The notes under the pieces were generated by a model. That model saw only the letters and a list, made by a program, of their open reading frames with translations. It was not told the DNA's origin and ran no database searches. Shown one piece after another: positions 1,397 to 27,179 of a DNA stretch of 64,000 nucleotides. The stretch's first letter is position 1. Every line of letters starts with the position of its first letter. Source of the stretch: an uncultured bacterium (GTDB lineage Bacteria; Patescibacteriota; Minisyncoccia; Phycocordibacterales; GWA1-40-21); NCBI GenBank assembly GCA_903831595.1, contig CAIKXY010000007.1, positions 3,944-67,943 of the forward strand. Reading direction: 5' to 3'. The position numbers were made by a program, and so were the translations under genes.

Positions 1397-3307
1397 TCAA
1401 GCACCAGAAAAAATGTAGAGTTTATTTTTTTGTTCCACAGCTCGTTTATCTGAAGTGACTTTTCCCCTTAATTCTTTTACTATTTCTTCATGTGATTTTC
1501 TATTTGGCCATACTTGGTCACCATTTAACTCATATATTGGGATACCTAATCTTTTTGCTATTAATTCTTGGAATTCTCCAACAGTTGTTTTTTCTGGGTC
1601 AACCTTAAATTTATCTTTTATGTAATTCATCACCGCATTTTTAAAATCATTAATATAATTCTCTTCGGTAATTTTTTGGAAAGGGAATAGTTTTTCTAAA
1701 TTTGGTAACAACTTTTTAAAAATTGATTTTTTAATTTCAGCGATTGATGATTTCTCCACATCAATATCAGGATAATTTAAAAATCTATTGGATTTTATGT
1801 CAAAATTAGACGAATGCTCTACATCGAGATTCTTTCCAAAAAAAGAAGAAGAAAGACTAATTTTCATATCTCTTAAAATAACCCCAGGGATTTTTTCAAT
1901 ATCGTTTTTAGTAATGTTAAGTGGAAGCTGTTTTTCATCAACGTTTAGAATATAACTAACATTAGTTTTGACAAGTTTGAGATCAATACCCTTATGTTCT
2001 CGATATTCAATTTTCTTATTTTTTAAATATTCAATAACGTTTTTGCTATCCTCACTGTCTTTGATCTTAATGACCAATTTCCTACGCACCTCATCTTTAT
2101 GGGTTATTTTATATTCATCTGAATCGGGCTTGTCTAAACCATTTAACATTTTTTCGCCCATATCTTTGCCATATTCAAGCATAGTTTCTTCGATATAATT
2201 ATTTTTTGCTTGTTCTTCAGATAAGTATTCCACTGACGACACCTCAGGCAGTGCTTCTATTCTTCTTTTTATTAATAAAATATCAGAAGCTGAGACATTT
2301 GTTTCAAAATTTGCGTCAATGTCATTATATTTTTTTATTTTATCTAGGTCACTCAATATATTTGAACTTATATCCGACACTAAGCCATATTCATGGAAAA
2401 CATTACTTTCTAAAGATTCTGCCAAAGGTGCTTTGTTCTCACTCTTAATTAACCCTTTTATATTCATAGAGGAAATCGGTTTAATACCCCATACTTCAAA
2501 CATATAATCTCCACTTTGTGCGGGGTCAACAACAAAATTTTCACTATTTTCTGGACTAATTAAGAAATGGCCTTTACGGTTATCTTCATGCTTGCCCGCA
2601 CCCTCGGAGCCCATCCCATACTCACCGATAGAATGTAGTGTTTCTTCGTTACCTGTTAACCACGTTTTTTGATATGTGAGCCAGATGTTTTTATAATCTT
2701 GATTCTCCAGTATTTCTTTTATTAAATTTTTCTTTTGATTTTCTTTAACAGATTTTTCTATCACATTAGAATCAAAAGAAATTATTGATCTCCGGCTAAC
2801 TCCTGTTTTTCCCCACGCATCATTACCCAATAGTGTTGTCATATCGATCACAGCCTTAATTGAATCCTTATTTAATTTTGGGTTAATTTTTATTAATGAG
2901 TCGATTTTTTCTTTCTCTTTTTTCTCAACCCCCTCATTATACTCGGGTGTATGACGTTGAAACCTTTTGTTTATATACGGAACAGGCATTGAAAGACAAA
3001 TAGCGTCACTACCATAATATCCTATGAGACCCGCCGGTGGCATATTTAATAGTTCAGAATTAGTATTTCCTGGTGAAATAATTTTAGCCCTTCTTTCCAT
3101 TTCAAGCCATGGTAAAAGACCCTCATCTTTCCTAAAAAGAAGTGGTGTTTCAAAAATATCAATTGTCTCTCTGACTTCAACTTTCTTTTCAGACTCAATT
3201 GTGCGCCCGTATACTTTTTTGTATCTTTCCAGTCTTTTTTTCTCTTCAGCCTCAAGAGCATCTTGACTTAAACCGTTATTTCCATAGTTAAATTGATCAA
3301 AATTCAT
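1397..3307 (-). CDS. hypothetical protein, 636 aa, K/E-rich, no TM
   Basis: Long uninterrupted ORF with host-like AT-rich codon usage, divergent from ileS. No family recognised. Confidence 0.6.
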   Translation of the reverse strand: MNFDQFNYGNNGLSQDALEAEEKKRLERYKKVYGRTIESEKKVEVRETIDIFETPLLFRKDEGLLPWLEMERRAKIISPGNTNSELLNMPPAGLIGYYGSDAICLSMPVPYINKRFQRHTPEYNEGVEKKEKEKIDSLIKINPKLNKDSIKAVIDMTTLLGNDAWGKTGVSRRSIISFDSNVIEKSVKENQKKNLIKEILENQDYKNIWLTYQKTWLTGNEETLHSIGEYGMGSEGAGKHEDNRKGHFLISPENSENFVVDPAQSGDYMFEVWGIKPISSMNIKGLIKSENKAPLAESLESNVFHEYGLVSDISSNILSDLDKIKKYNDIDANFETNVSASDILLIKRRIEALPEVSSVEYLSEEQAKNNYIEETMLEYGKDMGEKMLNGLDKPDSDEYKITHKDEVRRKLVIKIKDSEDSKNVIEYLKNKKIEYREHKGIDLKLVKTNVSYILNVDEKQLPLNITKNDIEKIPGVILRDMKISLSSSFFGKNLDVEHSSNFDIKSNRFLNYPDIDVEKSSIAEIKKSIFKKLLPNLEKLFPFQKITEENYINDFKNAVMNYIKDKFKVDPEKTTVGEFQELIAKRLGIPIYELNGDQVWPNRKSHEEIVKELRGKVTSDKRAVEQKNKLYIFSGA

Positions 3308-3383: not shown

Positions 3384-6300
3384 ATGAGTAATTCTAAACA
3401 AGAAAAAGTTAAAAACCCCATAATAAAAAGCAAATTTGCCGAAAGGGAAGAAGAAATTTTGAAATTTTGGCAAGAAAAAGATATTTTTAAAAAATCTTTA
3501 GAAAAAGACGCGCCAAAAGGTGAGTACGTTTTTTATGATGGCCCACCATTTGCTTCAGGTCTCCCACACTACGGGCATATTATTCCTGGAACGATGAAGG
3601 ATTACATGGGCAGATATCAGACAATGAAAGGGAAACATGTTGCGCGCAGATGGGGTTGGGACACACACGGTCTTCCAATTGAAAATATTGTCGAGAAAGA
3701 AATCGGATTAAAATCAAAAAAAGATATTGAAGATTATGGTATAGAAAAATTTAACGACCTAGCAAGGACGAAGATTTTTACTTATGCAGATGATTGGAAA
3801 AAAATAATTCCAAGAACGGGTCGCTTTGTTGATATGGAAAATGATTACAGAACGATGAACCCAACATACACCGAAACTGTTTGGTGGATTTTTAAAGAAT
3901 TACACAAAAAAGGACTTGTTTATGAAGGTTTCAAATCTATGCACCTATGTCCACATTGCGGTACAACCCTTTCAAATTTTGAGGTTGCTCAAGGATACAA
4001 GGACATTACAGACATCTCTGTAACGGCCAAATTTGAGCTTTTGGACGAGCCAAAAACCTTCTTTTTAGCTTGGACGACCACCCCATGGACGCTTCCAGGT
4101 AACGTGGCTTTGGCAGTAAATCCAGACATCGATTATGTAAAAATTTTGATCGGAGAAGAGAAATTTATTTTAGCGGAATCACGACTTTCTGTGATAAAAG
4201 AACATTATAAAATTATCGAAAAAACTGAGGGAAAAGCTTTAGTTGGGATCTCTTATAAACCTCTTTTTAATTTTTATGACAATAAAGATTTAAAAAATAG
4301 AGAGAATGGTTTCAAAGTTTATGATGCAAGTTTTGTTACTACAGAAGATGGGACAGGAATTGTTCATATCGCACCAGCATTTGGAGAAGATGATATGAAT
4401 CTTGGAAAAGATAAAAAATTACCATTTATTCAACATGTTGGGACAGACGGAATATTTAAAAAAGAAGTCAAAGGTTTTGCTGGAGAAAAAGTTAAACCAA
4501 TAGAAGATCCACAACGCGCAGATATCCAAATAATTAAACATTTGGCGAAAGAAGGAACACTTTATGCAAAAGAAAAATTTATTCACCCATATCCACATTG
4601 TTATAGATGTAATACTCCACTTTTGAATTACGCCACAAGCTCATGGTTTGTTGAAGTTACAAAAATTAAAGATAAACTTGTTGAGGCAAATAAAAAAATA
4701 GACTGGGTTCCATATGAAGTTGGTGATGGAAGATTTGGAAAATGGCTTGAAGGTGCTCATGACTGGGCGATTTCTAGAAGTAGATTTTGGGGAGCACCAC
4801 TTCCTGTTTGGAAATGCAATATGTGTCCGGAAAAAGAATTTATCGGCTCAATCGATGATATAAAAAAGAGAACAAGCAGAGAAAATAATTTTTTTGTTGT
4901 TAGACACGGTGAGGCAGATAGTAATGTTTTAGGAATTCTTAGTTCAAATCCAAAAACAAAACACCACTTGACCAAAAATGGCAGAGAGCAGGCTGAAGTT
5001 GCTGGAGAAAATCTTTTGAAAAACAAAATAGATGTTATTTATTGTTCACCATTTTTAAGAACAAAAGAAACCGCAGAAATTATTGCCGAAAAAATTGGTT
5101 ATCCAAAAGATAAAATAATTTATGATAAAAGATTGCATGAAATATTTGTTGGCGTCCTTGATGGCAAGCCAGATGCAGAATACCAAGCATTTTTTGAATC
5201 TCGAGAAGCAAAATTTACAAAAACTCCAGATGGCGGAGAGAATTATACGTCTGTCAAAAACAGAATGACCGAATTTTTGTATGAAGCAAACGAAAAAAAT
5301 GAAGGAAAAAATATTTTGATTATTTCGCACAATACACCAATCTGGCTTATGTATGCTGGAGCAAGTGGTTTGACTCCAAAGCAAGCGATGACAATAAGAG
5401 AAGCCGGGAAGCCATTCATAAAAAACTCTGAAATAAAAAAACTTGATTTTGCACCAATTCCACACAACAGAAATTATGAGCTCGATATGCATAGGCCTTT
5501 TATTGATGAAATAATTTTGAAATGTGCTTGTGGTGGAGAAATGAAAAGAATTCCAGAAGTTTTTGATTGCTGGTTTGAGTCTGGCTCAATGCCTTATGCC
5601 GAATCGCATTATCCTTTTGAAAATTTAGATAAATTTAATCCACAAAAAAAGATTGGTTTTCCAGCAGATTTTATTGCGGAAGGTGTCGACCAAACAAGGG
5701 GATGGTTTTATTCAATGCTTGTACTTTCTGTAGCACTTTTTGGTGAAGCCTCATATAAAAGTGTTGTTGTAAATGGGATGATGCTTGCAGAAGATGGCAA
5801 AAAAATGTCAAAAAGTTTGAAAAATTACCCAGAGATTATGGATGTTATATCGACTTATAGTGCTGATGCATTCAGGTATTCACTTTTATCGTCTCCTGTA
5901 ATAAAAGCAGAGGACTTAAACTTTTCAAATAAAAGTGTTGATGAGGCACTAAAGAAAATTATTATGAGATTGCAAAATGTCTATTCATTTTTTGAAATGT
6001 ATGGCGGTTTTGATTTGAAAGAAAAACAGAAATGGGATTCAAAAAATATTTTGGACAAGTGGATTCTTACAAGACTAAAAGAAACAGCAACTCAGATGAC
6101 GAAAGCCACAGACAAGCATGAGTTTGATAGGGCAACAAGGCCAATCGCAGATTTTGTTGATGACCTTTCAACTTGGTTTTTGAGAAGATCACGAGACAGA
6201 TTTAAATCCGAAGATGCGGAAGACAGAAATTCTGCAATGTACACGACAAAAACTGTTATTTTGGAATTTTCAAAACTTTTAGCGCCATCAATGCCTTTTC

Positions 6301-6893
6301 TTGCTGAAGATTTGTATTTAAAAATCACTGGAGGAATGGACAAGGAAAGTGTTCACTTGGAAAACTGGCCAGATAATATTGTTGGGGAGATTTCAAGTGT
6401 GGAAAATGATATTTTAGAAAAAATGAAAGAAACAAGAATGGCTGTTTCAATTGGACTTGAAGCTCGTGCAAAAGTTGGACTAAAAGTAAGACAGCCACTT
6501 GCAAGTTTGAAAGTAAAAAGTGAAAAATTAAAAGGAAATATTGAATATCTTGGTTTGATTAAAGAAGAAGTAAATATAAAAGGAATAATTTTTGATAAAA
6601 ATATTGATGCAGATGTTGAGCTTGATTCAAATATTACAACCGAACTTAAAGAAGAGGGAATTATGCGTGACATTGTCCGTGCAATTCAAGAAATGAGAAA
6701 AGTCCAAAAATTAAACCCAGGAGATTTGGCTGACCTTGTTGTTGATACAGATAAAGCAGGGCAAACTATTTTTGAAAAATTTGATAAAGAAATTTCAAAA
6801 GCCACTGGTCTAAAAGGGATTACTTTCGAGACGATGGAAGAAGGAGAAACAGTTGAATTTGATGGATTTAATGCTAGGATGTTAATTGAATAA
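3384..6893 (+). CDS. ileS: isoleucyl-tRNA synthetase (type 2/eukaryote-like) with inserted histidine-phosphatase-like domain
   Basis: PPFASGLPHYGH (HIGH-type motif), WGWDTHGLPIE, CP1 editing region, CWFESGSMPYA, KMSKS (GKKMSKSLKNYPE) and a C-terminal anticodon-binding region. Carries an extra ~190 aa between the editing and KMSKS halves. Confidence 0.85.
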   Translation: MSNSKQEKVKNPIIKSKFAEREEEILKFWQEKDIFKKSLEKDAPKGEYVFYDGPPFASGLPHYGHIIPGTMKDYMGRYQTMKGKHVARRWGWDTHGLPIENIVEKEIGLKSKKDIEDYGIEKFNDLARTKIFTYADDWKKIIPRTGRFVDMENDYRTMNPTYTETVWWIFKELHKKGLVYEGFKSMHLCPHCGTTLSNFEVAQGYKDITDISVTAKFELLDEPKTFFLAWTTTPWTLPGNVALAVNPDIDYVKILIGEEKFILAESRLSVIKEHYKIIEKTEGKALVGISYKPLFNFYDNKDLKNRENGFKVYDASFVTTEDGTGIVHIAPAFGEDDMNLGKDKKLPFIQHVGTDGIFKKEVKGFAGEKVKPIEDPQRADIQIIKHLAKEGTLYAKEKFIHPYPHCYRCNTPLLNYATSSWFVEVTKIKDKLVEANKKIDWVPYEVGDGRFGKWLEGAHDWAISRSRFWGAPLPVWKCNMCPEKEFIGSIDDIKKRTSRENNFFVVRHGEADSNVLGILSSNPKTKHHLTKNGREQAEVAGENLLKNKIDVIYCSPFLRTKETAEIIAEKIGYPKDKIIYDKRLHEIFVGVLDGKPDAEYQAFFESREAKFTKTPDGGENYTSVKNRMTEFLYEANEKNEGKNILIISHNTPIWLMYAGASGLTPKQAMTIREAGKPFIKNSEIKKLDFAPIPHNRNYELDMHRPFIDEIILKCACGGEMKRIPEVFDCWFESGSMPYAESHYPFENLDKFNPQKKIGFPADFIAEGVDQTRGWFYSMLVLSVALFGEASYKSVVVNGMMLAEDGKKMSKSLKNYPEIMDVISTYSADAFRYSLLSSPVIKAEDLNFSNKSVDEALKKIIMRLQNVYSFFEMYGGFDLKEKQKWDSKNILDKWILTRLKETATQMTKATDKHEFDRATRPIADFVDDLSTWFLRRSRDRFKSEDAEDRNSAMYTTKTVILEFSKLLAPSMPFLAEDLYLKITGGMDKESVHLENWPDNIVGEISSVENDILEKMKETRMAVSIGLEARAKVGLKVRQPLASLKVKSEKLKGNIEYLGLIKEEVNIKGIIFDKNIDADVELDSNITTELKEEGIMRDIVRAIQEMRKVQKLNPGDLADLVVDTDKAGQTIFEKFDKEISKATGLKGITFETMEEGETVEFDGFNARMLIE
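4890..5480 (+). other. in-frame histidine phosphatase (phosphoglycerate-mutase superfamily) domain embedded in IleRS
   Basis: FFVVRHGEADSN (RHG catalytic motif at nt 4902-4910) and a downstream LIISHNTPI (second catalytic His). The span is ~190 aa, typical of small PGAM/SixA/CobC-like phosphatases. Canonical IleRS sequence lies on both sides. Confidence 0.6.
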
Positions 6894-6903
6894 TATAGAA
6901 TTT

Positions 6904-8184
6904 ATGAAAAAACAAGATATCATTAAAAGTATAATAATTCTAGTTATTGTCGGTCTATCAATATTTTATTTTTATAACAAAAAAACTGATATTTCCTTAA
7001 CAGATGGCTGGAAAAAACAATTTAATGAGGTAAATAATTTTACGCCAACGATTTCATCATCTACTGTTGAGAAAGTAGATTATTTTACGCTATCAACATC
7101 TTCTGACATTGGATACGCCATATATAAAAAAGGTTTTGATATAGTCGATTTATTAATACAAAATGATGATGGTTCTACTACAACAAAACGTTTTTTAACA
7201 CCATATTTTTTTATAGAAAATTTTAATGATGTCATTAAGTCCATGTCAGAAAATACATCTGCTTGTCCTGAGACTTATACTTTAGTTACAGCATCGAGCA
7301 ATGATTATTTTTCTTCTAAATTTTATATAACAAAAAATTGTATCTATGCTTCTCAAACTAGTAATAAAATAACAAAATTAAAACTTATTGCTAAAGATAA
7401 TTTTAATTCCTTTAATTTTTTGCCTGTTGGTTTTACGTTGGGTTATTATTTATATCAAAACAACGCATATTATATTGGTGTGGATAGTATAGACTTACTC
7501 ACAAATTTTAAAGAGGCTTCCGGTTTATGTGATGTAATTGAGTACGGTCCAATTTTTATTTATTATCCATCACAGGACGGTTTTTTAATTGATCGTGGAC
7601 AAAAGACTGAAGTTTCAGATTCAATTTGTGAAGGTGTTCCAACTGGTCTATATAAAGGTAACACAAAAGTATATTATTTATATAATTTAGTTGGTGGAAT
7701 GATAATTGATGAACTTAATGGGTTAAATTCAAGTACAACAGTAAAAATTGGAGAAAAGCTATTTACTGATGGAAATAAGACTGTGAGAATAGATTCTGGG
7801 AATGGAATGGATGGTACTTTTTGGGATAACGTTATCGATGTGAATATATCAGATATTTCAACATACAAAGAACTTGGGCCAGAATATGCGGTTGACTCTG
7901 TAAATGTATATTACAAGGGAAAGGCGATTGTTGGTGCCGATAGTAAAACTTTTAAAGTTTTATATGATGAAAAAGGAGGATTTGAGGGGAGTGCAGTTTC
8001 TATAGGTAGGGATAATTATTCATTATGGTATGAAAATTATAAAATTATGGAAATTAATCCTGCAACAGAGATAACTTTTAAAGGTAACGGCGGTGATTGG
8101 ACCGACAGAAGCATACATTTCAGCGATGGACAATATAATTATATATATAATGGTCCTGGTGATTTAGTTAAAGAAAAAATTTAA
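6904..8184 (+). CDS. membrane-anchored extracytoplasmic protein (hypothetical); ORF track start 6886 (TTG), ATG 6904 more likely
   Basis: N-terminal TM (IIKSIIILVIVGLSIFYFY), rest hydrophilic. Overlaps the ileS stop. Confidence 0.55.
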   Translation: MKKQDIIKSIIILVIVGLSIFYFYNKKTDISLTDGWKKQFNEVNNFTPTISSSTVEKVDYFTLSTSSDIGYAIYKKGFDIVDLLIQNDDGSTTTKRFLTPYFFIENFNDVIKSMSENTSACPETYTLVTASSNDYFSSKFYITKNCIYASQTSNKITKLKLIAKDNFNSFNFLPVGFTLGYYLYQNNAYYIGVDSIDLLTNFKEASGLCDVIEYGPIFIYYPSQDGFLIDRGQKTEVSDSICEGVPTGLYKGNTKVYYLYNLVGGMIIDELNGLNSSTTVKIGEKLFTDGNKTVRIDSGNGMDGTFWDNVIDVNISDISTYKELGPEYAVDSVNVYYKGKAIVGADSKTFKVLYDEKGGFEGSAVSIGRDNYSLWYENYKIMEINPATEITFKGNGGDWTDRSIHFSDGQYNYIYNGPGDLVKEKI

Positions 8185-8259: not shown

Positions 8260-8844
8260 ATGCACCACATTTACACCACTAAAGCCATAATCATTCGAAG
8301 TATTCCTATTGGAGAGGCAAATAAATACTATTTTTTACTAACAGAAAATTTGGGATTTATTAGAGCCACCGCCCAAGGTGTCCGATTAGATAAATCAAAA
8401 TTAAAAGGGCATTTGCAGGATTTCTGTTTTGTAGAAATTTCTCTGGTAAAAGGAAAAGATATTTGGCGAATCACAAGTGTTCAAACTATTGAAGCTGGTT
8501 ATTTCATAAAAAATACAAATAAACTCATTGCGATTAAAAATGTTTTTAACTTACTCACACGTTTACTTCACGGTGAAGAGAAAAATGAGGCACTTTTTGC
8601 AAGTATTGAATCTTTTTATAATTTTTTACTAAAAAATGATTTGAATTTAGAAAATATAAAAAATCTAGAAACAATTACTGTGCTTCGTATTTTGTATCAT
8701 CTTGGCTATTTCAAAAAAACATTTGAATTATCAAATTTCGTAAAAAATCATGATGCGTCTTTAGGCCTTTTAGATATATTTAAGAAAAATAGACAAATTG
8801 CAATTCTGGATATTAATGATGCCTTGAACGAAACGCATTTATAG
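8260..8844 (+). CDS. recO: DNA repair protein RecO-like (short form)
   Basis: The N-terminal OB-fold pattern (AIIIRSIPIGEANKYYFLLTENLGFIRATAQGVRLDKSKL) resembles RecO. 194 aa is shorter than canonical RecO. Confidence 0.45.
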   Translation: MHHIYTTKAIIIRSIPIGEANKYYFLLTENLGFIRATAQGVRLDKSKLKGHLQDFCFVEISLVKGKDIWRITSVQTIEAGYFIKNTNKLIAIKNVFNLLTRLLHGEEKNEALFASIESFYNFLLKNDLNLENIKNLETITVLRILYHLGYFKKTFELSNFVKNHDASLGLLDIFKKNRQIAILDINDALNETHL

Positions 8845-8885
8845 TGCTATTTTTGCTACAAAAACATTGTGGTATAATATCTTGC

Positions 8886-10808
8886 ATGTTTGAGTCTGAT
8901 GAGAAAAAAGATAATATAGAAAAAGTTGAAGAGTCTTTATATTCTAAGACTATTGACAATATTTTTATAAAAAGGAGACATTCTCTACAAGAAGAAAAAA
9001 AGGCGGACGCACCAACAGCTTGGAATGTTAAAGAGGAAGAAGCTGAAAGCCATTTTCAGTTGCCTTATTCAAAAATCCTTTTAGGGGCTTTTATTTTTTT
9101 TGTAATAGCTTTAGGCTTTACTTTTTCTAAATTTTTTCTAGGAAACAATATTGTTTCTGGAAATAACATTGATATTTTAGTAAGTGGACCAGTCTCTATT
9201 GCTGGTGGGGAAGAATTGCCATTAGATATTCAGATTATAAATAACAACAATGTTAATTTAAACAGTGTCGCTTTGAAAGTCGAGTATCCTGTTGGTACAA
9301 AAAGTTCAATCGATCAATCCCAAGATTATCCAAGGTATAGTGAGTTGCTTGGTGATATAAATATAGGTAAGAATCAAAGAAGGCTAGTAAAATCAGTATT
9401 ATTTGGTGAGGAAAATTCTCAACAAGTTGTAAAAATTACAGTCGAGTATCGAACAACTGGTTCAAACGCAATTTTTAGTAAAGAAAAAGATTTTAATGTC
9501 TTGATATCGTCTTCTCCTGTAAATGTGAGTGTAAGTGGACCGACTGAAATTAATTCAAACCAACTTACTGATTTTTCAATTGATGTGAGCTCAAATTCTA
9601 CAAGTATAGTAAAAAATTTAATATTAAAAGCGGAATATCCCTTTGGCTTTAATTTGTCATCTTCTAACCCAAAATCGATAAGTTCTGATGATAGTGTTTT
9701 TGCAATTGGTGATTTGGCTCCAGGAGCAAAAAGAACAATAAGAATCTCTGGCTCTATTACTGGACAAGATGGTGAGCAAAGGGTAATTAAGTTTACTGTC
9801 GGTATACCAAGTAGTAACGATAATACAATAGTAACAACTTCACTTGCCACATACGTTTCAACTATATCATTAAAAAAATCTTCAATAGGTCTTGCTATGG
9901 CAATTAACCAACAGACTGGTGATGATGTCGTTATTGATGTTGGAAGTAAGAACGCAATAAATATTTCTTGGCAGAATAATTTGTCAGAACAAGTTTATGA
10001 TATGGTGATAAAGATAGGGATGAGCGGACAAATATTAAATAAAGAATCAGTGAGTGTGGTAAATGGTTTTTATAATTCTTCTAATAATACAATTGTTTTT
10101 GATAAAGGAGCACAGGGCGGTTTCTCAACTGTAAATCCATCAGACCAAGGAGATTTGGAATTTGATTTTAGTACTTTATATCCATATGCAGGTTCGCCAG
10201 TCCCTTTCGGGAATTCATCCATAAAAATGGATGTTAGTGTCACTGGTAACTTAATTGGCGCTAACGGATCAAAATCACAGGAATTACTTTTTTCTGACAC
10301 GAAAACACTTAAATTATCTTCAAGTTTAAAATTATTATCTCGTGGATTTAGAACCGTTGGACCATTTGAAAATAGCGGACCATTTCCTCCACAAGCTGAT
10401 AATCAAACAACTTACACGATTACATGGACAGCATCGGATTCATTTAATAACGTTACAGGGGCAAAAGTTTCAGCGTTCTTGCCTCCAAATGTTACATGGA
10501 CCGGGTATACTAGCCCAGATTCAGAAAATATTATTTACGATAAGGGAACGGGTGAAGTAGATTGGAACATTGGTGATATGAAATATGGTGTTGGTGTGAA
10601 TTCTCCCGCAAGAACAGTTTCATTCCAAGTTGCGATTATTCCTTCGATTACTCAAGTTGGTCAAGAAATAAATTTGTTGAACGAGGCAACCATAAGTGGA
10701 ACAGATGCATATTCGAAAGCTAGAATAGGTGAGATAAAAAATCCGATCACAACAACAATTACTTCTGACCCAGAATATGTTGATGGAGTGGGTATTGTGA
10801 TTAAATAA
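8886..10808 (+). CDS. large TM-anchored extracytoplasmic protein (hypothetical); ORF track start 8844 (GTG)
   Basis: 640+ aa with a TM segment (ILLGAFIFFVIALGFTF), then an S/T/N/G-rich beta-like domain. The TGgTATAAT extended -10 at 8870-8878 lies immediately upstream of ATG 8886. Confidence 0.55.
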   Translation: MFESDEKKDNIEKVEESLYSKTIDNIFIKRRHSLQEEKKADAPTAWNVKEEEAESHFQLPYSKILLGAFIFFVIALGFTFSKFFLGNNIVSGNNIDILVSGPVSIAGGEELPLDIQIINNNNVNLNSVALKVEYPVGTKSSIDQSQDYPRYSELLGDINIGKNQRRLVKSVLFGEENSQQVVKITVEYRTTGSNAIFSKEKDFNVLISSSPVNVSVSGPTEINSNQLTDFSIDVSSNSTSIVKNLILKAEYPFGFNLSSSNPKSISSDDSVFAIGDLAPGAKRTIRISGSITGQDGEQRVIKFTVGIPSSNDNTIVTTSLATYVSTISLKKSSIGLAMAINQQTGDDVVIDVGSKNAINISWQNNLSEQVYDMVIKIGMSGQILNKESVSVVNGFYNSSNNTIVFDKGAQGGFSTVNPSDQGDLEFDFSTLYPYAGSPVPFGNSSIKMDVSVTGNLIGANGSKSQELLFSDTKTLKLSSSLKLLSRGFRTVGPFENSGPFPPQADNQTTYTITWTASDSFNNVTGAKVSAFLPPNVTWTGYTSPDSENIIYDKGTGEVDWNIGDMKYGVGVNSPARTVSFQVAIIPSITQVGQEINLLNEATISGTDAYSKARIGEIKNPITTTITSDPEYVDGVGIVIK

Positions 10809-10945
10809 AAATTAAAGTAAATTAGAGATAACTTGTCCCGTTACAAATAACGTGACGAATTAAGAAAAAAGACCCAATTTGGATTAAAATAAAAGTAAAA
10901 ATAAGTCGATAAATATTTATAGGCATAAAAAAATTTGTAACTGGG

Positions 10946-12364
10946 ATGATAAAAGAAAAAAATACTAAGGTAGAAAACAATAAAAGAATGGAAGAAATAA
11001 TTTCTCTTTGTAAAAGAAGAGGTTTTGTTTTTCAAGGTTCCGAAATATACGGTGGGCTTGGTGGAGTTTATGACTACGGTCACTATGGAACATTGTTAAA
11101 AAATAATATCAGAGATTCTTGGCAAAAAAGTATGGTTCAAGATAGGGAAGATGTTTTTCTTTTAGACAGTGCTATTTTTATGCATCCAACAACATGGGTT
11201 GCTTCAGGACATGTGGGTAATTTTGATGACCCTTTGGTTGAGTGTAGAAAATGTCACAATAGAATGCGAGCGGATCATATTCTTGAAAGTTTTGGAATCT
11301 CGGCGGATAAAATGCCAATTGATTTTATAAATAAAGAACTAGACAAGCTAAGAGAAGAAAAGAAATTGAAGTGTTCTACTTGTGGACTATCTGATATAAC
11401 ACCCGCAAAAAAGTTTTCCCTTATGATAAAATCAAATTTCGGTTCCCCAACAGATGAATTAAAAGAAGAAAATGTTGTTTATCTTAGACCAGAAACTTGC
11501 GGTGGAATTTATTTGCAATACAAAAATACTGTTGATTCACTACACCCCAAATTACCATTTGGTATTGCACAAATAGGTAAAGCTTTTAGAAATGAAATCG
11601 CTGCAAGGCAATTTATATTTAGAACAAGAGAGTTTGAACAAATGGAAATGCAGTATTTTATTCACAAAAAAGATACAAAAGAAAAATATGAAATGTGGAA
11701 GGAAGCGAGAATGAAATGGTACCTTGACCAAGGAATTTCCAAAGATAAATTGAAATGGTACAAACACGAAAAATTAGCCCACTATGCATCAGAAGCTTAT
11801 GATGTTAAATATGATTTTTCTTGTCTCGGTGGTTTTGACGAGGTTGAAGGAATTCATGCAAGAGGCGATTGGGATTTGTCGCAACACTCAAAATTTTCAG
11901 GTGTCGATTTGAGTTATTATGATGATGAAACAAAAGAGAGATTTACTCCCCATATTGTTGAGACATCAGCTGGATTGAACAGACTAGTTTTAATGTTTTT
12001 AGATAATGCTTACACTGAAGATAATTTGGGTGGTGAAAAAAGACTATTTTTGAAATTGCCTAAACAATTAGCACCAATAAAAATTGCAGTATTTCCACTC
12101 TTGCGAAATAAACCAGCTCTTGTAGAAAAAGCAAAAGAAATATACGAAAATTTGAAGAAAGATTTTATGTGTGAATTTGATGATAATGGAAATATTGGAA
12201 AAAGATATCGAAGACAAGATGAAATAGGGACTCCATATTGTGTCACAATAGATTTTGAGACAATTGAGAAAGATAATATGGTGACAGTAAGGGATAGAGA
12301 TACAGGAAGTCAGGAAAGAGTGGAAATTGAAGAATTAATAAAATATTTCAAAAAAGTATTATAG
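10946..12364 (+). CDS. glyQS: glycyl-tRNA synthetase (dimeric alpha2 type)
   Basis: RRGFVFQGSEIYGGLGGVYDYGHYGTLLKNNI and class II aaRS motifs. 472 aa. Confidence 0.85.
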   Translation: MIKEKNTKVENNKRMEEIISLCKRRGFVFQGSEIYGGLGGVYDYGHYGTLLKNNIRDSWQKSMVQDREDVFLLDSAIFMHPTTWVASGHVGNFDDPLVECRKCHNRMRADHILESFGISADKMPIDFINKELDKLREEKKLKCSTCGLSDITPAKKFSLMIKSNFGSPTDELKEENVVYLRPETCGGIYLQYKNTVDSLHPKLPFGIAQIGKAFRNEIAARQFIFRTREFEQMEMQYFIHKKDTKEKYEMWKEARMKWYLDQGISKDKLKWYKHEKLAHYASEAYDVKYDFSCLGGFDEVEGIHARGDWDLSQHSKFSGVDLSYYDDETKERFTPHIVETSAGLNRLVLMFLDNAYTEDNLGGEKRLFLKLPKQLAPIKIAVFPLLRNKPALVEKAKEIYENLKKDFMCEFDDNGNIGKRYRRQDEIGTPYCVTIDFETIEKDNMVTVRDRDTGSQERVEIEELIKYFKKVL

Positions 12365-12367
12365 AAT

Positions 12368-12405
12368 AAAAGGCGGGTATGCGAAGCAAACCCGCCTTTT
12401 ATTCT
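12368..12405 (+). terminator. rho-independent terminator
   Basis: AGGCGGGT-loop-ACCCGCCTTTTATT. Confidence 0.7.
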
Positions 12406-12436
12406 ATTTGGTCATTTTTTATGATAAAATGGTGTT

Positions 12437-13705
12437 GTGAACTACACTAAAAAGAAATTAAAAAATGGAATGAGAATTATCACTATTCCAATGAAGGAGA
12501 ATCCTACCACAACAGTGTTGGTGCTTGTTGAAACAGGCTCAAAATATGAAAATAAAGAAAATAGTGGAATCTCACATTTTCTTGAGCATGTATGTTTTAA
12601 GGGAACATCAAAAAGACCATCTGCCCTAGAAATTACTAAGGAATTAGACAGTATTGGAGCCCAATATGGTGCTTTTACAGGTCATGAATTTACAGGATAT
12701 TATGCAAAATCTGACTATAAAAATTTGTATACAATACTCGATGTTGTTTCTGATTTATATTTGAACCCGGTTTTTCCAGAAAAGGAAATTGAAAAAGAAA
12801 AAGGGGTGATTATCGAGGAAATAAATATGTATAATGATTTGCCACAAAGTATTGTTGGTGAAGAATTTATGAAACTATTGTATGGAGACACCCCAGCAGG
12901 TAGAAGCATTGCTGGTACAAAAGAAAATATCCAGAAAATGCAAAAAACAGATTTTATTGATTATAGAAGTAAACATTATGTCGCGTCTGCCACAACAATA
13001 ATTGTTGCTGGAAAAATAAATGAAAAAGAAATTGTAAAAAAAATTACTACTGCTTTCAAAGATATAGGTAAGTGGAAAAAAGATGATAAAGAAAAAGTTG
13101 TGGAACATCAAAAATTACCCCATATCGCAGTTCACTATAAAGATACAGATCAAACACACATTATTCTTGGAGTTCGCTCTTTCAATACTTATAATAAATA
13201 CAATCCAATCATAAGAGTTCTTGATGGAGTTTTATCTGGAGGAATGAGTTCTCGTCTATTTCAGAAATTACGAGAGGAAATGGGCATTTGCTATTATGTT
13301 GGTTCAGAAAATAGCACTTTTACTGATCATGGTTTTCTTTCTGTTGCCGCTGGTGTTGATAGTAAGCGAGTAAGTGAAGCCATAACCACTATTTTGTCAG
13401 AAATGAATAAATTAAAAGATATTTTAGTAAAACCAGAAGAATTGAACAAAGTTAAACAATATTTGATAGGTAATTTAAACCTCGGTCTTGAATCTTCAAA
13501 TTCCCAAGCAGGGTTTTTAGGTGGTCAAGAAGTTTTGAGAAAAGATTTAAAAACTCCGGAAGATATTATAAAAGAAATAAAAGCTGTTACAGCCGATGAA
13601 ATAAAATTTGTTGCAGAAAGAATATTCAAAAATGATGGGCTAAATTTGGCTATAGTGGGGAAGTTTAAAGATGATAAAGAATTTAAAAATATTCTCCATT
13701 TTTAA
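12437..13705 (+). CDS. M16-family zinc peptidase (pitrilysin/insulinase-like)
   Basis: HFLEHVCFKGT matches the inverted zinc-binding HxxEH motif. 422 aa. Confidence 0.75.
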   Translation: MNYTKKKLKNGMRIITIPMKENPTTTVLVLVETGSKYENKENSGISHFLEHVCFKGTSKRPSALEITKELDSIGAQYGAFTGHEFTGYYAKSDYKNLYTILDVVSDLYLNPVFPEKEIEKEKGVIIEEINMYNDLPQSIVGEEFMKLLYGDTPAGRSIAGTKENIQKMQKTDFIDYRSKHYVASATTIIVAGKINEKEIVKKITTAFKDIGKWKKDDKEKVVEHQKLPHIAVHYKDTDQTHIILGVRSFNTYNKYNPIIRVLDGVLSGGMSSRLFQKLREEMGICYYVGSENSTFTDHGFLSVAAGVDSKRVSEAITTILSEMNKLKDILVKPEELNKVKQYLIGNLNLGLESSNSQAGFLGGQEVLRKDLKTPEDIIKEIKAVTADEIKFVAERIFKNDGLNLAIVGKFKDDKEFKNILHF

Positions 13706-16565: not shown

Positions 16566-17687
16566 ATGAATAAAAGAATTAAATGGATTGGAGGGCTTGT
16601 AATCATTTTGGTAGTCATAATTTTGATTGCATCCCAACAATCAGGGCAGACAAATATTACTGGGCCAATTAAAATTGGTGCTATTTTACCACTAACGGGT
16701 GACTATGCCGTATTAGGCCAGGAAATACAGAAAGGAATTGATATCGCTGTTGACGAGGTTAATTCGCAGGGCGGAATAAATAACAGAAAAATGGAAATTA
16801 TTTATGAAGATGGTGGCATGGCAGATTTTCCAAAAATTACCTCAGCAGCTCATAAATTAATTGATGTAGACAAAGTGTATACAGTATTAGTTGATTCACT
16901 TACTACTATGAAACCGATTGCTCCACTTTTCCAACAAAATAAGATTCCTGCAATAATGATTTTTGATAATGCAGAATTAGGTAGTTACATTTTCTCTATA
17001 GGTTTTTCTACTCAAAAAACTGGAGAAAAAATGGCAGATTTTGTTTATAGCAAAAAGAATATAAAAGAAGTTGCAATCGTTGCCCAACTCGATGAAGTAA
17101 TGCAAACACTTTCTAAAGCATTCAAAGACAAATTTGAGAAATTGGGAGGCAAAGTTACTATCCTTGAAAATATCAATCCAAGTGAAAACGATTTTAAGAC
17201 AACAATCACAAAAATTAAAAACAGCAAACCACAGGGTATTTATTTTTCATTTGTTCAAGGAATAGATTTGTTTTTAAAGCAAATAAAAGAACAGAAGCTA
17301 AATTTGCCTATATTTGGTAACGATGCTGTCACGGAAGATGTTATTGCCGCTGCTGGCTCTGCTGCCGAAGGAGTATATTTTGCTAATTTCTATACCAATG
17401 ATAACCCAATACTAAAAAGTTTGACTGAAAAATACAAAGAAAAATATAATGAAGAACCACAGTTACTATTGTTCAATGCTTTTGGTTATGATGGAGTATT
17501 AGTTTTGAAAGAAGCAATTAAAAATATAAAAATCGTATCCCCTCAAAACATAACAGAATCATTGTACAAGATAAAAAATCTTGATACATCTAGTGGAGAA
17601 ACGATCTCTATTTCTCCTGTGGGGACAGTTGAAAGAACTGAGAAAATTTTTCAGATTCAGAATGGTAAGGGAATATCGGCAGAATAA
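16566..17687 (+). CDS. livK: Liv-type (type I periplasmic-binding-protein fold) ABC substrate-binding protein, paralog 1, TM-anchored
   Basis: N-terminal TM anchor, then IKIGAILPLTGDYAVLGQEIQKGIDIAVDEVNSQGGINNRKMEIIYEDGG, the LivJ/LivK-like pattern. Immediately upstream of livHMG. Confidence 0.8.
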   Translation: MNKRIKWIGGLVIILVVIILIASQQSGQTNITGPIKIGAILPLTGDYAVLGQEIQKGIDIAVDEVNSQGGINNRKMEIIYEDGGMADFPKITSAAHKLIDVDKVYTVLVDSLTTMKPIAPLFQQNKIPAIMIFDNAELGSYIFSIGFSTQKTGEKMADFVYSKKNIKEVAIVAQLDEVMQTLSKAFKDKFEKLGGKVTILENINPSENDFKTTITKIKNSKPQGIYFSFVQGIDLFLKQIKEQKLNLPIFGNDAVTEDVIAAAGSAAEGVYFANFYTNDNPILKSLTEKYKEKYNEEPQLLLFNAFGYDGVLVLKEAIKNIKIVSPQNITESLYKIKNLDTSSGETISISPVGTVERTEKIFQIQNGKGISAE

Positions 17688-17809
17688 TTTTAAATTACAA
17701 AGGATTTATCTAAAACAAAAAGACGAGTTTCCGCTTTGCGGAAACTCGTCTTTTTGTTGTGATTTTAGCTATTATTTATGCTAAAATTATCTTATTCCTA
17801 TTTATTTAA

Positions 17810-18691
17810 ATGGACATATTCGTACAATTATTAATTAACGGATTGATAGCGGGCGCCATATATTCTTTGGTAGCTTGTGGTTTTTCGCTTATTTATTCAA
17901 CAAACAAATTTATTCACTTCGCACACGGTGGAGTGATTATTGTTTCGTCCTATATTTTTTATACTCTTTTTTCTATTTTACATTTAGAATTTTATCTTTC
18001 TTGTATTCTTGCAATTCTTTTGGCTGGCCTTGTCGGCTATCTGATAAACCAATTTATTTACAAACCCTTCCGAAAAAGAAAAGCCAGCAATTCTATTTTG
18101 CTCATTGCCAGCTTTGGTGTTCTTATCTTTCTAGAATCAATGCTTCTAATTATTTTTGGTGCAAATGTCCAAACAATAGATTATATTCCAAACGCACAAG
18201 GCCTTTCTGTTTTGGGTGCGATTATTACACCGTTACAAATTGTCATAATTATTTCTTCAATAATTCTTTTAATTTTTTTCTATTTTTTTATGAAAAAAAC
18301 GAGAATCGGAAAAGCAATGCGAGCAGTTTCAGACAACCCTGACGTTGCAGAAATAGTCGGTATTTCCGCTAGTAAAATATATGCGTGGACTTTCACGATT
18401 GGTTCAATGGTGGCCGGTATCGCCGCAATTTTAATCTCCCTCGAACAAAATATTGAGCCTAGTATGGGTTCGAGCCTCATGATAAAGGGTTTTACCGCAG
18501 CAGTAATTGGGGGCCTTGGTAGCGTCCCTGGGGCAATATTTGGCGCATTTTTGCTGGGTTTTGCCGAAAACTTTGGTATTTGGTACCTACCTTCCGGCTA
18601 CAAAGACGCAATCGCTTTCGTTCTACTTTTTTTGTTTTTACTTTTTCGTCCAAACGGTATTTTGGGTCTTAAATATAATAATCAAAAATGA
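17810..18691 (+). CDS. livH: branched-chain amino acid ABC transporter permease LivH
   Basis: 293 aa polytopic, LivH-like (INGLIAGAIYSLVACGFSLIY). Confidence 0.8.
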   Translation: MDIFVQLLINGLIAGAIYSLVACGFSLIYSTNKFIHFAHGGVIIVSSYIFYTLFSILHLEFYLSCILAILLAGLVGYLINQFIYKPFRKRKASNSILLIASFGVLIFLESMLLIIFGANVQTIDYIPNAQGLSVLGAIITPLQIVIIISSIILLIFFYFFMKKTRIGKAMRAVSDNPDVAEIVGISASKIYAWTFTIGSMVAGIAAILISLEQNIEPSMGSSLMIKGFTAAVIGGLGSVPGAIFGAFLLGFAENFGIWYLPSGYKDAIAFVLLFLFLLFRPNGILGLKYNNQK

Positions 18692-19560
18692 TAAGCGCAT
18701 ATTTTATACATCTTTTAATATTGATTGGAATATATATTATTTTAGCAATTTCGCTTCAATTGGCGGTTGGTTATGGTGGATTGTTAAATCTTGGACATAT
18801 ATCATATTTTGGTATTGGCGCTTACGTGTACACCATTTTACTTTTCCACGGCGTTAATTTTTGGATTTGTTTTTTACTTGCTGGTTTTTCTGCCGCATTT
18901 TTTGGCTGGATGTCGGCCATCGGAATTCGTAAACTAAAAGGGGATTATCTTGCTCTCGTCACTCTCGGTTTCTCTTTTGTTACTTATGCAGTGCTTATAA
19001 ACTGGACAGAATTGACTCGTGGGCCGCTTGGTATTGCAGGTATTCCACGTCCAGTACTATTTGGTTTTGGCACAAACGAAAATATGGTTTATCTTGTTTT
19101 TGTATTTGTTATTGCTGCTATTTCATACTTTTTTATAAACAAAATCGTTTCTTCTCCGTTTGGTAAGGTTGTTGAGGCTGTTCGAGACGATGAAATCTCA
19201 GCAAAATCTTTGGGTAAAAGCACATTTAAAATAAAATGTATCAATCTTGCCACTTCGGCATTTTTTGCGGGTATCGCCGGTTGTCTTTATGCTTCATATA
19301 TTACTTTTATAGATCCATCATCTTTTACTTTCTCAAACGTAATTCCTATTATACTTATAATCATAATCGGTGGGCTTGCTTCTCTTCCCGGTACGATACT
19401 TGCCACATTTTTTATTATTTTGTTGCCGGAGCCACTTCGTTTTATTGGCTTCTCTTCGTCAATTGTTGGACCAGCAAGACAAATCGTTTACGCTCTGATT
19501 TTGCTTATCGTTTTGTATTATAAACCGCGAGGTTTTTACGGTAAATTAGATTTGGAATAA
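18688..19560 (+). CDS. livM: branched-chain amino acid ABC transporter permease LivM
   Basis: 290 aa polytopic, overlapping livH by 4 nt. LivM-like. Confidence 0.8.
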   Translation: MISAYFIHLLILIGIYIILAISLQLAVGYGGLLNLGHISYFGIGAYVYTILLFHGVNFWICFLLAGFSAAFFGWMSAIGIRKLKGDYLALVTLGFSFVTYAVLINWTELTRGPLGIAGIPRPVLFGFGTNENMVYLVFVFVIAAISYFFINKIVSSPFGKVVEAVRDDEISAKSLGKSTFKIKCINLATSAFFAGIAGCLYASYITFIDPSSFTFSNVIPIILIIIIGGLASLPGTILATFFIILLPEPLRFIGFSSSIVGPARQIVYALILLIVLYYKPRGFYGKLDLE

Positions 19561-19561
19561 C

Positions 19562-20311
19562 ATGTTAAAAATTAGAAACATACAAAAACATTTTTCTGGG
19601 ATTAAAGCAGTAGATGGCTGCTCTTTTGATGTTGAAAAGGGGAAAATAACCGCGCTTATTGGACCCAACGGTTCGGGAAAAACAACAATGTTTAACCTTA
19701 TTTGCGGTAATATAAAATCTGATGGTGGCGAAATTATCTTTTCTACCCCAACTGGAGAAAGAAACATTGTTGGCATGCCGATAGAAAAAATATCAAACTA
19801 TGGTATTTCAAGACTTTTTCAACAATCAAGACTTTTTAAAAATCTTACGGTATTGGAAAATCTTTTAGTATCGGAAGACAATGAAGACCAGAAATTTTGG
19901 AAAAATATATTTGGTTTGAATAAATTTGATAAAAGCAAAATAGACAAAGCAAATAAAATTCTGGGTGATTTTGAAATAAAAGATATTGCGCATCTTACAG
20001 CAGGGGAATTGAGCTTTGGTCAAAAAAGGCTTGTTGAAATTGCCAGAAATATTCTAAATTATCACACGGTTTTGGTGCTTGATGAGCCGGTGGCTGGAGT
20101 AAACCCAAAAATTCGTGAAAAAATCGCAAAAATAATTACTCAATTAAAAAAAGATGGAGAAACAATATTACTTATCGAACATGACATGCAATTTACCCTT
20201 GGTATATCTGATAAAGTGATTGTTATGGACGCTGGTAAAATTATTACCACGGGGACTCCAGAAGAAATCAGAAATAACCCTGAAGTTTTAAGGATATATT
20301 TGGGGAAATAA
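19562..20311 (+). CDS. livG: ABC transporter ATP-binding protein LivG
   Basis: GPNGSGKTT Walker A, LSFGQKRLVEIAR signature, LVLDEP Walker B. Confidence 0.85.
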   Translation: MLKIRNIQKHFSGIKAVDGCSFDVEKGKITALIGPNGSGKTTMFNLICGNIKSDGGEIIFSTPTGERNIVGMPIEKISNYGISRLFQQSRLFKNLTVLENLLVSEDNEDQKFWKNIFGLNKFDKSKIDKANKILGDFEIKDIAHLTAGELSFGQKRLVEIARNILNYHTVLVLDEPVAGVNPKIREKIAKIITQLKKDGETILLIEHDMQFTLGISDKVIVMDAGKIITTGTPEEIRNNPEVLRIYLGK

Positions 20312-20313
20312 TC

Positions 20314-21159
20314 ATGAATAATTTTAAATCATACGAAAGAAAATTGAGGGCTAGCTACTCTGAACTTGATGCTAAAACAGAAGATGGTTGGGCGATATTG
20401 GAATATAAGGGGAAAAAAATAAATGGCTACACTGATAAAGATTATATTTATCATTTTTTTACTAAACACATTGTAGACCTTCAGAAAAAAGATTTGGATA
20501 TTGTTGATTTGGGCGGCGGCGATGGAGTCCTATTGGACATTATTGGCAAACAGCTTGATGCAAAAGGAATAAAGGCCACTTTATTAAATATAGATAATAA
20601 TTCTAATAGTTTACTGCTTTGTAATAAAAAATTTCCACACATAAAAACAAAATTACAAAACGTATTATCGATTACTAATAGAAACCAAGCGGATGTTGTC
20701 ATAAGTCGTTTTTCTTTTCAGTATTTTAGCAAGGCAAATCAGATTAAATTAATGCGCGTAATCCATAATACACTCAAAAGTGGCGGTTTATTGATAGCGG
20801 AGTGGCCTTATGGTAATGATGAAAAAATATTTCACGAGGTTATGACAAATATTAAATCTATTATTTCTGGGGAAGAAGTAAGTGATTTAAAAAAAAGTAT
20901 TTATAATTTTTTACCAAATCATTTCAAAGATTTATTAAAAAAGTCCGGTTACGTCGGTATAAAAAAGGAACTAGGTGGAGTATTTATGCATTCTACAAAA
21001 TCGTGGAAAGACAGATTTAATATAAATGAAAATCAATCAAGGGAAATCGATTTGCTATATTTGAAATATTTTTTAAAAACAAAGAAATTATTTTTTAGAC
21101 AAAAAAACATTATATATTTAAAAAGCCATGTATGTTTTGCTCGTGCTTTTAAGAAATAA
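20314..21159 (+). CDS. class I SAM-dependent methyltransferase (translationally coupled to livG)
   Basis: IVDLGGGDGVLLD motif I. Its start lies 2 nt after the livG stop. Confidence 0.6.
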   Translation: MNNFKSYERKLRASYSELDAKTEDGWAILEYKGKKINGYTDKDYIYHFFTKHIVDLQKKDLDIVDLGGGDGVLLDIIGKQLDAKGIKATLLNIDNNSNSLLLCNKKFPHIKTKLQNVLSITNRNQADVVISRFSFQYFSKANQIKLMRVIHNTLKSGGLLIAEWPYGNDEKIFHEVMTNIKSIISGEEVSDLKKSIYNFLPNHFKDLLKKSGYVGIKKELGGVFMHSTKSWKDRFNINENQSREIDLLYLKYFLKTKKLFFRQKNIIYLKSHVCFARAFKK

Positions 21160-23214: not shown

Positions 23215-23223
23215 AATACAAAT

Positions 23224-23254
23224 AAAAGCCGCGCCCGAAGGGCGCGGCTTTTTT
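23224..23254. terminator. bidirectional terminator hairpin
   Basis: AAAAGCCGCGCCCGAAGGGCGCGGCTTTTTT. Confidence 0.75.
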
Positions 23255-24023: not shown

Positions 24024-24167
24024 TGGCTTGAATTACTCTCCTTTTTAGGAGGGTTTGTATTACTTTTTAATGTGATTATAATACATCTGTTATCCTTAAT
24101 TGTCAATACTGATTAAGAAATAAAGACGGCGAATTAAGGACAATAGCAGACTAACAATTATTATAAT

Positions 24168-24917: not shown

Positions 24918-24951
24918 GAGTATAAGGAAAGAATAAATTAATAATAAAAAT

Positions 24952-26079: not shown

Positions 26080-26080
26080 T

Positions 26081-26109
26081 AAAAAATGCGCCCTTCGGGC
26101 GCATTTTTT
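26081..26109. terminator. bidirectional terminator hairpin
   Basis: AAAAAATGCGCCCTTCGGGCGCATTTTTT. Confidence 0.75.
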
Positions 26110-26160
26110 ATTATTTGATATTTAGCATCTACGCTATGGCGTAGATGAAGCATTTTGATT

Positions 26161-27132: not shown

Positions 27133-27179
27133 GTCAATTAACCAATAAGTTTCTTTTATTATAAATATTTTATAAATTT

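Follow-up and report, generated by a model that had tools for sequence, protein, structure and literature searches.

Few enzymes have been studied as well as the aminoacyl-tRNA synthetases, whose known accessory domains serve to edit, to bind tRNA or to assemble complexes. The histidine phosphatases are in turn known for a pocket, made up of two Arg, two His and an Asn, which takes a terminal, unsubstituted phosphate and works through a phospho-histidine intermediate. The present work concerns a gene in which these two types of enzymes are combined, viz. ileS, encoding an isoleucyl-tRNA synthetase (IleRS), in a 64,000-nucleotide (nt) stretch of DNA from an uncultured, tiny-genome bacterium of the Patescibacteriota (contig CAIKXY010000007.1, positions 3,944 to 67,943, assembly GCA_903831595.1; referred to below as the window). 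The encoded protein shares its architecture, the zinc knuckle, the HIGH and KMSKS signatures and the C-terminal domains with the type-2 IleRS, which are eukaryote-like and mupirocin-resistant (structures 8c8v, 8wnd and 7d5c). However, within its connective peptide 3 (CP3) it contains a histidine-phosphatase domain, and an insert of about 200 amino acids (aa) in CP3 is present in none of the solved IleRS structures. The association of the domain with IleRS is specific and recurrent, and in other lineages it is the valyl-tRNA synthetase (ValRS) with which it is associated.

The ileS gene extends from 3384 to 6893 on the forward strand, as do all of its features described here, and it forms one unbroken open reading frame (ORF) of 1169 aa, which scores 855.6 bits against the IleRS equivalog TIGR00392 (cut-off 621.4). 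Its assignment to type 2 is indicated by a C-terminal DUF5915 and by a catalytic domain nearest to IleRS2, for which the best Foldseek matches are 8c8v from Priestia megaterium (E=1.8e-74) and 8c8w (E~1e-74), while IleRS1 8c9e reaches only 1.8e-43. After 8c8v, the next PDB matches of the full-length model were yeast 8wnd and T. thermophilus 1ile, and none of these structures contains the insert. The ileS_w_GNAT model (NF040702) is matched at only 302.5 bits, its cut-off being 1999, and Pfam shows no GNAT domain in the window protein. In the first half of the protein, the HIGH signature reads HYGH (aa 62-65, 3567-3578), with H62 and G64 invariant in our alignment A2, and the CP1 editing motifs WTTTPWT (aa 230-236) and GTGIVHIAPAFGEDD (aa 323-337), spanning 4071-4394, are intact with their residues invariant. 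The sequence DWAISRSRFWG (aa 460-470, 4761-4793), which an initial annotation of this DNA had taken for the return from the editing domain, is instead the linker between CP2 and CP3, as named after yeast IleRS (PMC7955072). In the yeast enzyme this linker, which reads ARDWNVSRNRYWG, lines the pocket for the tRNA 3' end (A76) and reveromycin (PMC7955072); DWAISRSRFWG is its counterpart here, and CP3 comes after it. The first Cys pair of the CP3 zinc knuckle (C478 and C481, 4815-4826) is likewise invariant in alignment A2. Beyond the insert, CP3 resumes with DMHRPFID and the second Cys pair (C714 and C716), at 5484-5531 according to the alignment with insert-less IleRS, and it is followed by the second half of the Rossmann fold (WFESG, aa 730-734; DQTRGWF, aa 769-775; KMSKS, aa 807-811; 5571-5816), and then by the anticodon-binding domain PF08264 (aa 891-1039) and DUF5915 (aa 1058-1169), which together occupy 6054-6890 in the Pfam scan.

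The phosphatase domain, inclusive of a conserved C-terminal linker APIPHNRNYEL, covers aa ~498-699. Alignment with insert-less IleRS places it at 4875-5480, within about 15 nt of the limits proposed in the initial annotation (4890-5480). In the alignment with the insert-less IleRS of its relatives, the junctions are seen where ...GSIDDIKKRT passes into SRENNFFVVRHGE and where KLDFAPIPHNRNYEL passes back into DMHRPFIDE..., so that the domain lies inside CP3, between the zinc-knuckle pairs C478/C481 and C714/C716 and 30-40 residues beyond DWAISRSRFWG. The earlier estimate that the protein is about 190 aa longer than usual is borne out, as the insert-less IleRS of relatives measure 818-972 aa and the extra ~200 aa are real. 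In the whole protein PF00300 (His_Phos_1) matches aa 504-668 (E=4e-35, 121.7 bits, gathering cut-off 21.7) and splits the match to the class I catalytic domain PF00133 in two; the segment 4890-5480, excised and scanned alone, gives E=1.1e-36 and 126.8 bits. The claim that a histidine phosphatase lies in frame within a type-2 IleRS thus holds, and the RHG and SH motifs on which it was based belong to a full catalytic set. The first of these is found in RHGE (aa 507-510, 4902-4913), where R507, the nucleophile H508 and G509 occupy 4902-4910, and the second in ISHNT (aa 647-651, 5322-5336), which contains the second catalytic His, H649 (5328-5330). To these are added the second Arg of the phosphate pocket, R559 (in SPFLRTKETA, 5058-5060), the presumed proton donor E586 (in RLHEI, 5139-5141) and a GGEN motif (aa 617-620). 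In the AlphaFold 2 (AF2) model of the full-length protein (predicted local distance difference test, pLDDT, 83; predicted template modelling score, pTM, 0.73) the insert and both of its linkers reach pLDDT 86-96, and the insert modelled alone reaches 91.4.

The Pfam score, the R/H/R/E/H catalytic core and the alpha/beta/alpha fold all place the insert in branch 1 of the histidine phosphatases. By structure comparison its fold is nearest to the small-molecule phosphatases PspA, GpgP, PhoE and CobC, with lower ranks for dPGM (19.7), FBPase-2 (18.7), SixA (16.9), PGAM5 (14.8) and Sts (14.2). However, the insert reaches the cut-off of none of the NCBIfam models compared here. Its best match is the short archaeal-type dPGM (NF038349, dPGM_arch), with 99-104 bits against 225; the values are 24.5 against 81.7 for the dPGM model TIGR01258, 70-73 against 350 for PspA (NF045917), 70-75 against 162.9 for CobC (TIGR03162) and 37-41 against 74.5 for SixA (TIGR00249). 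In the alignment to 4ij5, the position of the PspA stretch E-I-D-H-G reads E-I-F-V-G in the insert, which means that His85 of PspA, the neighbour of the proton-donor Glu and a residue that we take to determine specificity, is replaced. R90 and Y92 of dPGM, which we likewise assume to be specificity residues, are lacking in the GGE(N/S) motif and the E-I-F-V-G stretch. Judged from these sequence and model comparisons, the insert is apparently a complete and catalytically competent histidine phosphatase, belonging to branch 1 and to the subgroup of PhoE/PspA/CobC/GpgP-like enzymes.

Conservation of the insert was examined in an alignment of 114 full-length homologues with the window protein as reference. 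R507, H508, G509, R559, E586 and H649 are invariant in it, and non-catalytic versions of the segment, which would have spoken against the initial annotation, were not seen among these homologues. The mean identity to the window protein is 0.67 for the insert, in comparison to 0.74 for the N-terminal and 0.64 for the C-terminal part of the synthetase. When compared by the Nei-Gojobori method with a relative of 88% identity, the insert has a ratio of nonsynonymous to synonymous substitution rates (dN/dS) of 0.057, the N-terminal part one of 0.058 and the C-terminal part one of 0.112. These values indicate that the insert is under purifying selection equal to that of the synthetase. The guanine-plus-cytosine (GC) content shows no discontinuity across it. 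Further, PF00300 is carried by all of the 120 best database homologues, which range from 100% down to 55% identity and come from metagenome-assembled genomes named Paceibacterota, Minisyncoccia, Parcubacteria or Patescibacteria; because all of them carry the domain, mis-assembly is excluded.

When the insert was searched against 1.84 billion cluster representatives, the matches were mostly IleRS fusions or fragments, together with a coherent family of free-standing proteins of ~190 aa that are 33-41% identical to it. A scan of the GTDB species genomes gave at least 526 relatives of the phosphatase family, both free and fused, and the counts below refer to 82 non-redundant loci out of these, with the sampling of loci capped at 80 and taxon names being the submitters' own. 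In 47-48 of the 82 loci a free gene is present just upstream of an insert-less IleRS; in ~37 of these it lies within 100 nt of ileS or overlaps it, and in ~10 unrelated genes stand in between. The domain is found in frame at the same CP3 site in 28-30 of the loci, and for 4 IleRS was not seen within the available flank. As the free phosphatase gene often overlaps ileS, the two are probably co-translated. One subfamily consensus is common to the free and the fused copies, and the residues R/H/R/(E or D)/H, corresponding to R507, H508, R559, E586 and H649, are retained in 82 of 82 free, fused and extra copies. In three loci the free gene is placed between the ArgRS gene and that for an insert-less IleRS, with gaps of only 1-3 nt, and downstream of these are RecO, a DUF11/CLIPPER protein, GlyRS and an M16 peptidase; the same downstream order is found in the window at 8260-13705 (forward strand). 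Where the domain is fused, ArgRS is directly next to IleRS and a free copy is absent. On the upstream side of ileS the window differs from most of its relatives, since the place of ArgRS is taken by a divergent ORF of 636 aa (1397-3307, reverse strand) with only a weak match to FtsX_ECD, and the local synteny is thus broken on that side.

The genes between the free phosphatase and ileS in the ~10 loci mentioned above include a toxin-antitoxin pair, an HD-domain protein, a radical SAM protein and a CYTH protein; they were considered as a clue to function and rejected as too heterogeneous. The CYTH gene (a triphosphate tunnel metalloenzyme; L003:10570-11160, on a contig shared with L010) was observed in one Staskawiczbacteria species. 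Small RelE/YafQ-type toxin-antitoxin-like pairs were observed in the ArgRS-phosphatase-IleRS cluster of two loci (L009:6652-7135 and L090:2423-2910), the second of which is the 88%-identical relative of the window and has the pair just upstream of its fused ileS. In regard to the origin of the fusion, our trees are neighbour-joining trees only. In that based on the IleRS core, with a midpoint root, a clade containing solely free forms is found on one side, and free and fused forms are interleaved on the other, requiring at least 7 parsimony changes between the two states, 3 of them with bootstrap values of 94-100. The tree for the phosphatase domain (189 columns) has low bootstraps and is unresolved. 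The interleaving of the two forms at the CP3 site may reflect either repeated insertion or lateral allele replacement at a syntenic locus.

The CP3 knuckle (site A), where 215 of the classified proteins carry the domain, is not its only location in IleRS. In rarer lineages it is found after the second Cys pair (site A'), between WFESGSMPYA and FPADFIAEG.DQTRGWF (site B), or between the stem-contact fold and the anticodon-binding domain (site C). A few IleRS have two or three copies, in the combinations B+C (the P0216 cluster, on contigs of up to 1.06 Mb), A+C, A+A', and A'+B plus a truncated C. Starting from P0182, a ValRS-like match with four copies of the domain, a search of ValRS showed that those from other classes within the candidate phyla radiation (CPR), named Gracilibacteria and Peregrinibacteria, often contain PF00300. 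Among the 120 ValRS proteins listed, a profile built here finds 1-4 His_Phos copies in 71, and in ~60 of these 71 the domain is located between DWCISRQ and DTWFSS, which is the tip of the CP3 hairpin homologous to that of IleRS. The catalytic residues are also kept in most ValRS copies (first R in 82/84, H in 82/84, second R in 83/84, E in 60/84 and second H in 74/84). The ValRS proteins with a phosphatase (P0396-P0513; example locus L089:6001-9270) are ~1040 to 1626 aa long. A free phosphatase gene adjoining an insert-less ValRS was not found in the 2 loci examined. From these sequence patterns we infer that the phosphatase was gained by ValRS independently of IleRS.

Three other proteins related to this architecture were observed. 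In P0120 (1325 aa) an IleRS carries a GNAT domain in the CP1 region (aa 285-415) in addition to the CP3 phosphatase (aa 664-827). P0229 (387 aa), which is known from a single cluster on a 3.7-kb contig, is a TsaC/Sua5-type threonylcarbamoyl-AMP synthase fused to the same phosphatase subfamily, and its phosphatase part groups with an IleRS-inserted copy with a bootstrap value of 91. Lastly, a second IleRS paralogue of 1009 aa (L069:8086-11115) directly follows a functional fused IleRS (4525-8067); it is without the CP1 editing domain, shows degenerate forms of the HIGH, KMSKS and DQTRGWF motifs and carries RPG where its phosphatase would have RHG. This protein is apparently a pseudo-enzyme, dead in both of its activities, in which the architecture is retained.

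On balance, the interpretation that we favour is that the insert is a catalytically competent branch-1 histidine phosphatase which, in Paceibacteria-type CPR bacteria, is a dedicated partner of IleRS and serves the synthetase. A phosphatase kept at the synthetase in this manner would be expected to act on a molecule that goes through the synthetic site, taking a terminal phosphate off it. The leading model for this activity, which we offer tentatively and regard as rather unlikely when taken by itself, is the healing of tRNA 3' ends that bear a 2'/3'-phosphate or a pyrophosphate. Toxins of the toxSAS type pyrophosphorylate the CCA 3' ends of tRNAs, some of them in a tRNA-specific manner (bioRxiv 10.1101/2021.04.30.441581; PMC11559606). 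The flexible CCA end, which in the Ile/Val synthetases already moves from the synthetic to the CP1 editing site and back, would according to this model also visit a third, inserted site, and the phosphatase in CP3 could be likened to CP1 as another enzyme nested in the same Rossmann fold. It would constitute a third catalytic site of the CPR Ile/Val synthetases, removing a 2'/3'-phosphate or a toxin-added pyrophosphate prior to charging, and thus an activity for tRNA end repair or against toxins that is resident in the synthetase, its trans-acting form being the free neighbouring gene. The next model, to which we give somewhat less credence, is that the domain clears a nucleotide or pyrophosphate product of the ATP-consuming editing cycle which the Ile and Val synthetases share. 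Hydrolysis of nucleoside diphosphates by the phosphatase domain of MutT1 is not borne out by the published work (PMC12407098), and MutT1 is not used here as a precedent for anhydride cleavage.

However, a number of observations weigh against a dedicated role at the synthetase. The nearest structural relatives of the insert act on free small molecules and not on RNA, and the fusion to TsaC in P0229 is at odds with a role at tRNA 3' ends. Further, damage to tRNA ends would concern every synthetase, yet the domain is not known here in LeuRS or others. An argument against tight channelling is that no single site of IleRS can have site C and all of the tandem copies beside it. CP3 is a variable and probably permissive loop, and its common use in IleRS and ValRS could be a matter of what the structure tolerates and not of function; nor does gene order that is conserved in streamlined genomes by itself prove a common function. 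Net charge and isoelectric point were considered as signs of RNA binding and set aside: the free phosphatases have a median net charge of +15 to +17, but the fused copies in other clades have +11 and the IleRS cores are basic too, and the high basicity is uninformative because it reflects lysine-rich proteomes.

The most serious alternative, which in our view is unlikely but by no means negligible, is that the domain is a housekeeping phosphatase or mutase (e.g. a missing phosphoglycerate mutase or a phosphoserine phosphatase) whose substrate is unrelated to aminoacylation. Such an enzyme would have been a neighbour of ileS in a translation gene cluster, would have been captured into a permissive surface loop, and would be kept there as both activities are essential. 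The match to archaeal-type dPGM as the best in NCBIfam (99-104 bits), metabolic small-molecule phosphatases as the top structural neighbours, the variability of the CP3 loop, and the heterogeneous and uninformative nature of the genes between the phosphatase gene and ileS are all in accordance with this, and phosphoglycerate mutase is reported to be absent in several shallow Parcubacteria clades (Jaffe et al. 2020; PMC7304191). However, the equivalog cut-offs are missed widely (dPGM_arch 225, PspA 350, CobC 163), and the presumed specificity residues of dPGM and PspA are missing from the corresponding stretches. Neutral capture also leaves unexplained the occurrence of the domain at four sites in IleRS, its multiple intact copies and its independent insertion in ValRS, where the insert-less relatives have no adjoining phosphatase gene in the 2 loci examined.

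An alternative that we rate as improbable is that IleRS and ValRS would sense a branched-chain amino acid or the charging status and would gate the phosphatase, which would then act on a metabolic or signalling phospho-compound, analogous to GCN2, in which a HisRS-like domain controls a kinase. The restriction of the synthetase hosts to the two enzymes for branched-chain amino acids, the rigid and conserved linkers, and the presence in the window of a branched-chain-type ABC transporter with at least 7 apparently paralogous binding proteins are compatible with this proposal, and the C-terminal phosphatase domain of MutT1, which acts on sensor kinases, provides a precedent for a regulator (PMC12407098). 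However, the neighbourhoods showed neither a target nor a regulatory partner, and gating of the free-standing form would require a non-covalent complex. Of the insertion sites, A, A' and B lie on either side of the active-site strands and C comes after the KMSKS/stem-contact fold. In other class I synthetases the KMSKS loop has a Ser that is the target of toxin kinases of the HipA/HipT type, and the superfamily includes protein phosphatases, viz. SixA, PGAM5, Sts and the C-terminal domain of MutT1. These facts are consistent with the proposal, in our assessment a very improbable one, that the domain strips an inhibitory phosphate, e.g. from this Ser, off the synthetase itself.

The initial annotation had further suggested that the domain might act on the aminoacyl-adenylate or on mischarged products as an additional proofreading activity, and it is the case that the domain is near the synthetic site in the chain and that both of its hosts are editing synthetases. 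However, this is chemically unlikely and we give it hardly any weight, since the pocket needs a terminal unsubstituted phosphate, whereas that of the aminoacyl-adenylate carries a 5'-adenosyl substituent, the hydrolysis of aminoacyl-tRNA involves no phosphate that could be removed, and the CP1 editing motifs are intact. The other substrates proposed there, a phosphorylated metabolite or a protein, are still candidates. The notion of a chimeric assembly (named at the outset as a possible refutation), a pseudogene or an intein-like selfish insert has nothing beyond the unusual architecture in its favour and can be practically dismissed, as the frame is unbroken with no GC shift and a dN/dS of 0.057, the 120 best homologues are alike and come from many independent assemblies and sources, the at least 526 relatives in GTDB species genomes and the 28-30 fused loci among the 82 extend this further, and the fusion recurs in hundreds of independent assemblies. 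An intein was specifically rejected, as PF00300 is the sole Pfam family in the insert, with no Hint/splicing or homing endonuclease domain, and the enzyme motifs are conserved.

The remainder of the window was also surveyed. A branched-chain-amino-acid-type ABC transporter, consisting of a Peripla_BP_6 binding protein and four further genes, is located at 16566-21159. It is followed at 22075-35973 by an array of tandem ORFs of ~375-390 aa, at least 7 by size and spacing, which are apparently paralogous Peripla_BP_6 binding proteins (one was scanned with Pfam) and which alternate with reverse-strand ORFs of ~250-280 aa resembling TrmB-type regulators (again with one scanned). An FtsK/SpoIIIE translocase is encoded at 38716-40995 (reverse strand), and a 925-aa homologue of HerA/TraG/VirD4-like coupling proteins (DUF87, TraG-D_C) at 60114-62891 (forward strand); the latter may be part of a DNA-transfer or type IV secretion-like system. 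An Rfam scan of the window gave no RNA family at the gathering thresholds.

No description of a histidine phosphatase in or beside IleRS or ValRS was found in the literature that we searched, and in the main text of a survey from 2026, which covers 96,219 domain architectures of IleRS, there is no mention of a phosphatase or of Patescibacteria. The NCBI models include one for the GNAT-containing IleRS and none for the phosphatase architecture, and the proteins concerned are named 'class I tRNA ligase family protein'. The component families are known, but the nested architecture, its neighbour-gene equivalent and the convergence in ValRS are not described in the literature found. The view in the initial annotation that the fusion is unusual is correct in this sense; however, it is not a one-off event, as it is clade-wide, is matched by a free form beside ileS and is paralleled by a convergent case in ValRS. 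With a phosphoryl-transfer enzyme inside the catalytic domain, aminoacylation would gain a new type of accessory chemistry, and the architecture is kept across a large bacterial radiation and mirrored by a neighbouring gene that is probably linked to it in translation. For the CPR organisms concerned, which are not yet growable alone, it provides a handle that could indicate pressure from tRNA damage or toxins, a need for product clearance, or a link to nutrient sensing. Recognition of this architecture would also improve the annotation of hundreds of genomes, and the pairs of free and fused forms provide a Rosetta-stone system for experiments.

In comparison to known systems, the insert resembles the branch-1 phosphatases PhoE, PspA, CobC and GpgP, which are small-molecule phosphomonoesterases of ~200 aa; however, it is only 22-27% identical to them, falls below every NCBIfam equivalog cut-off, has a subfamily signature of its own and is linked to IleRS either as a neighbouring gene or as an in-frame insert. 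Fusions of histidine phosphatases to other enzymes are known in the mycobacterial MutT1 (Nudix plus phosphatase), in Rv2228c-type RNase H/acid phosphatases and in PFK-2/FBPase-2, but these are end-to-end fusions, whereas here the phosphatase is nested in the catalytic domain of its host, which is an aminoacyl-tRNA synthetase, and the pair also occurs as conserved unfused genes. A further likeness is to the CP1 editing domain of Ile-, Val- and LeuRS and to the GNAT-containing IleRS (NF040702), in which a loop of a connective peptide of a class Ia synthetase likewise houses a separate catalytic domain. However, CP1 is universal and hydrolyses aminoacyl esters, whereas the phosphatase is lineage-specific, is located in CP3 and would have phosphoryl transfer as its chemistry.

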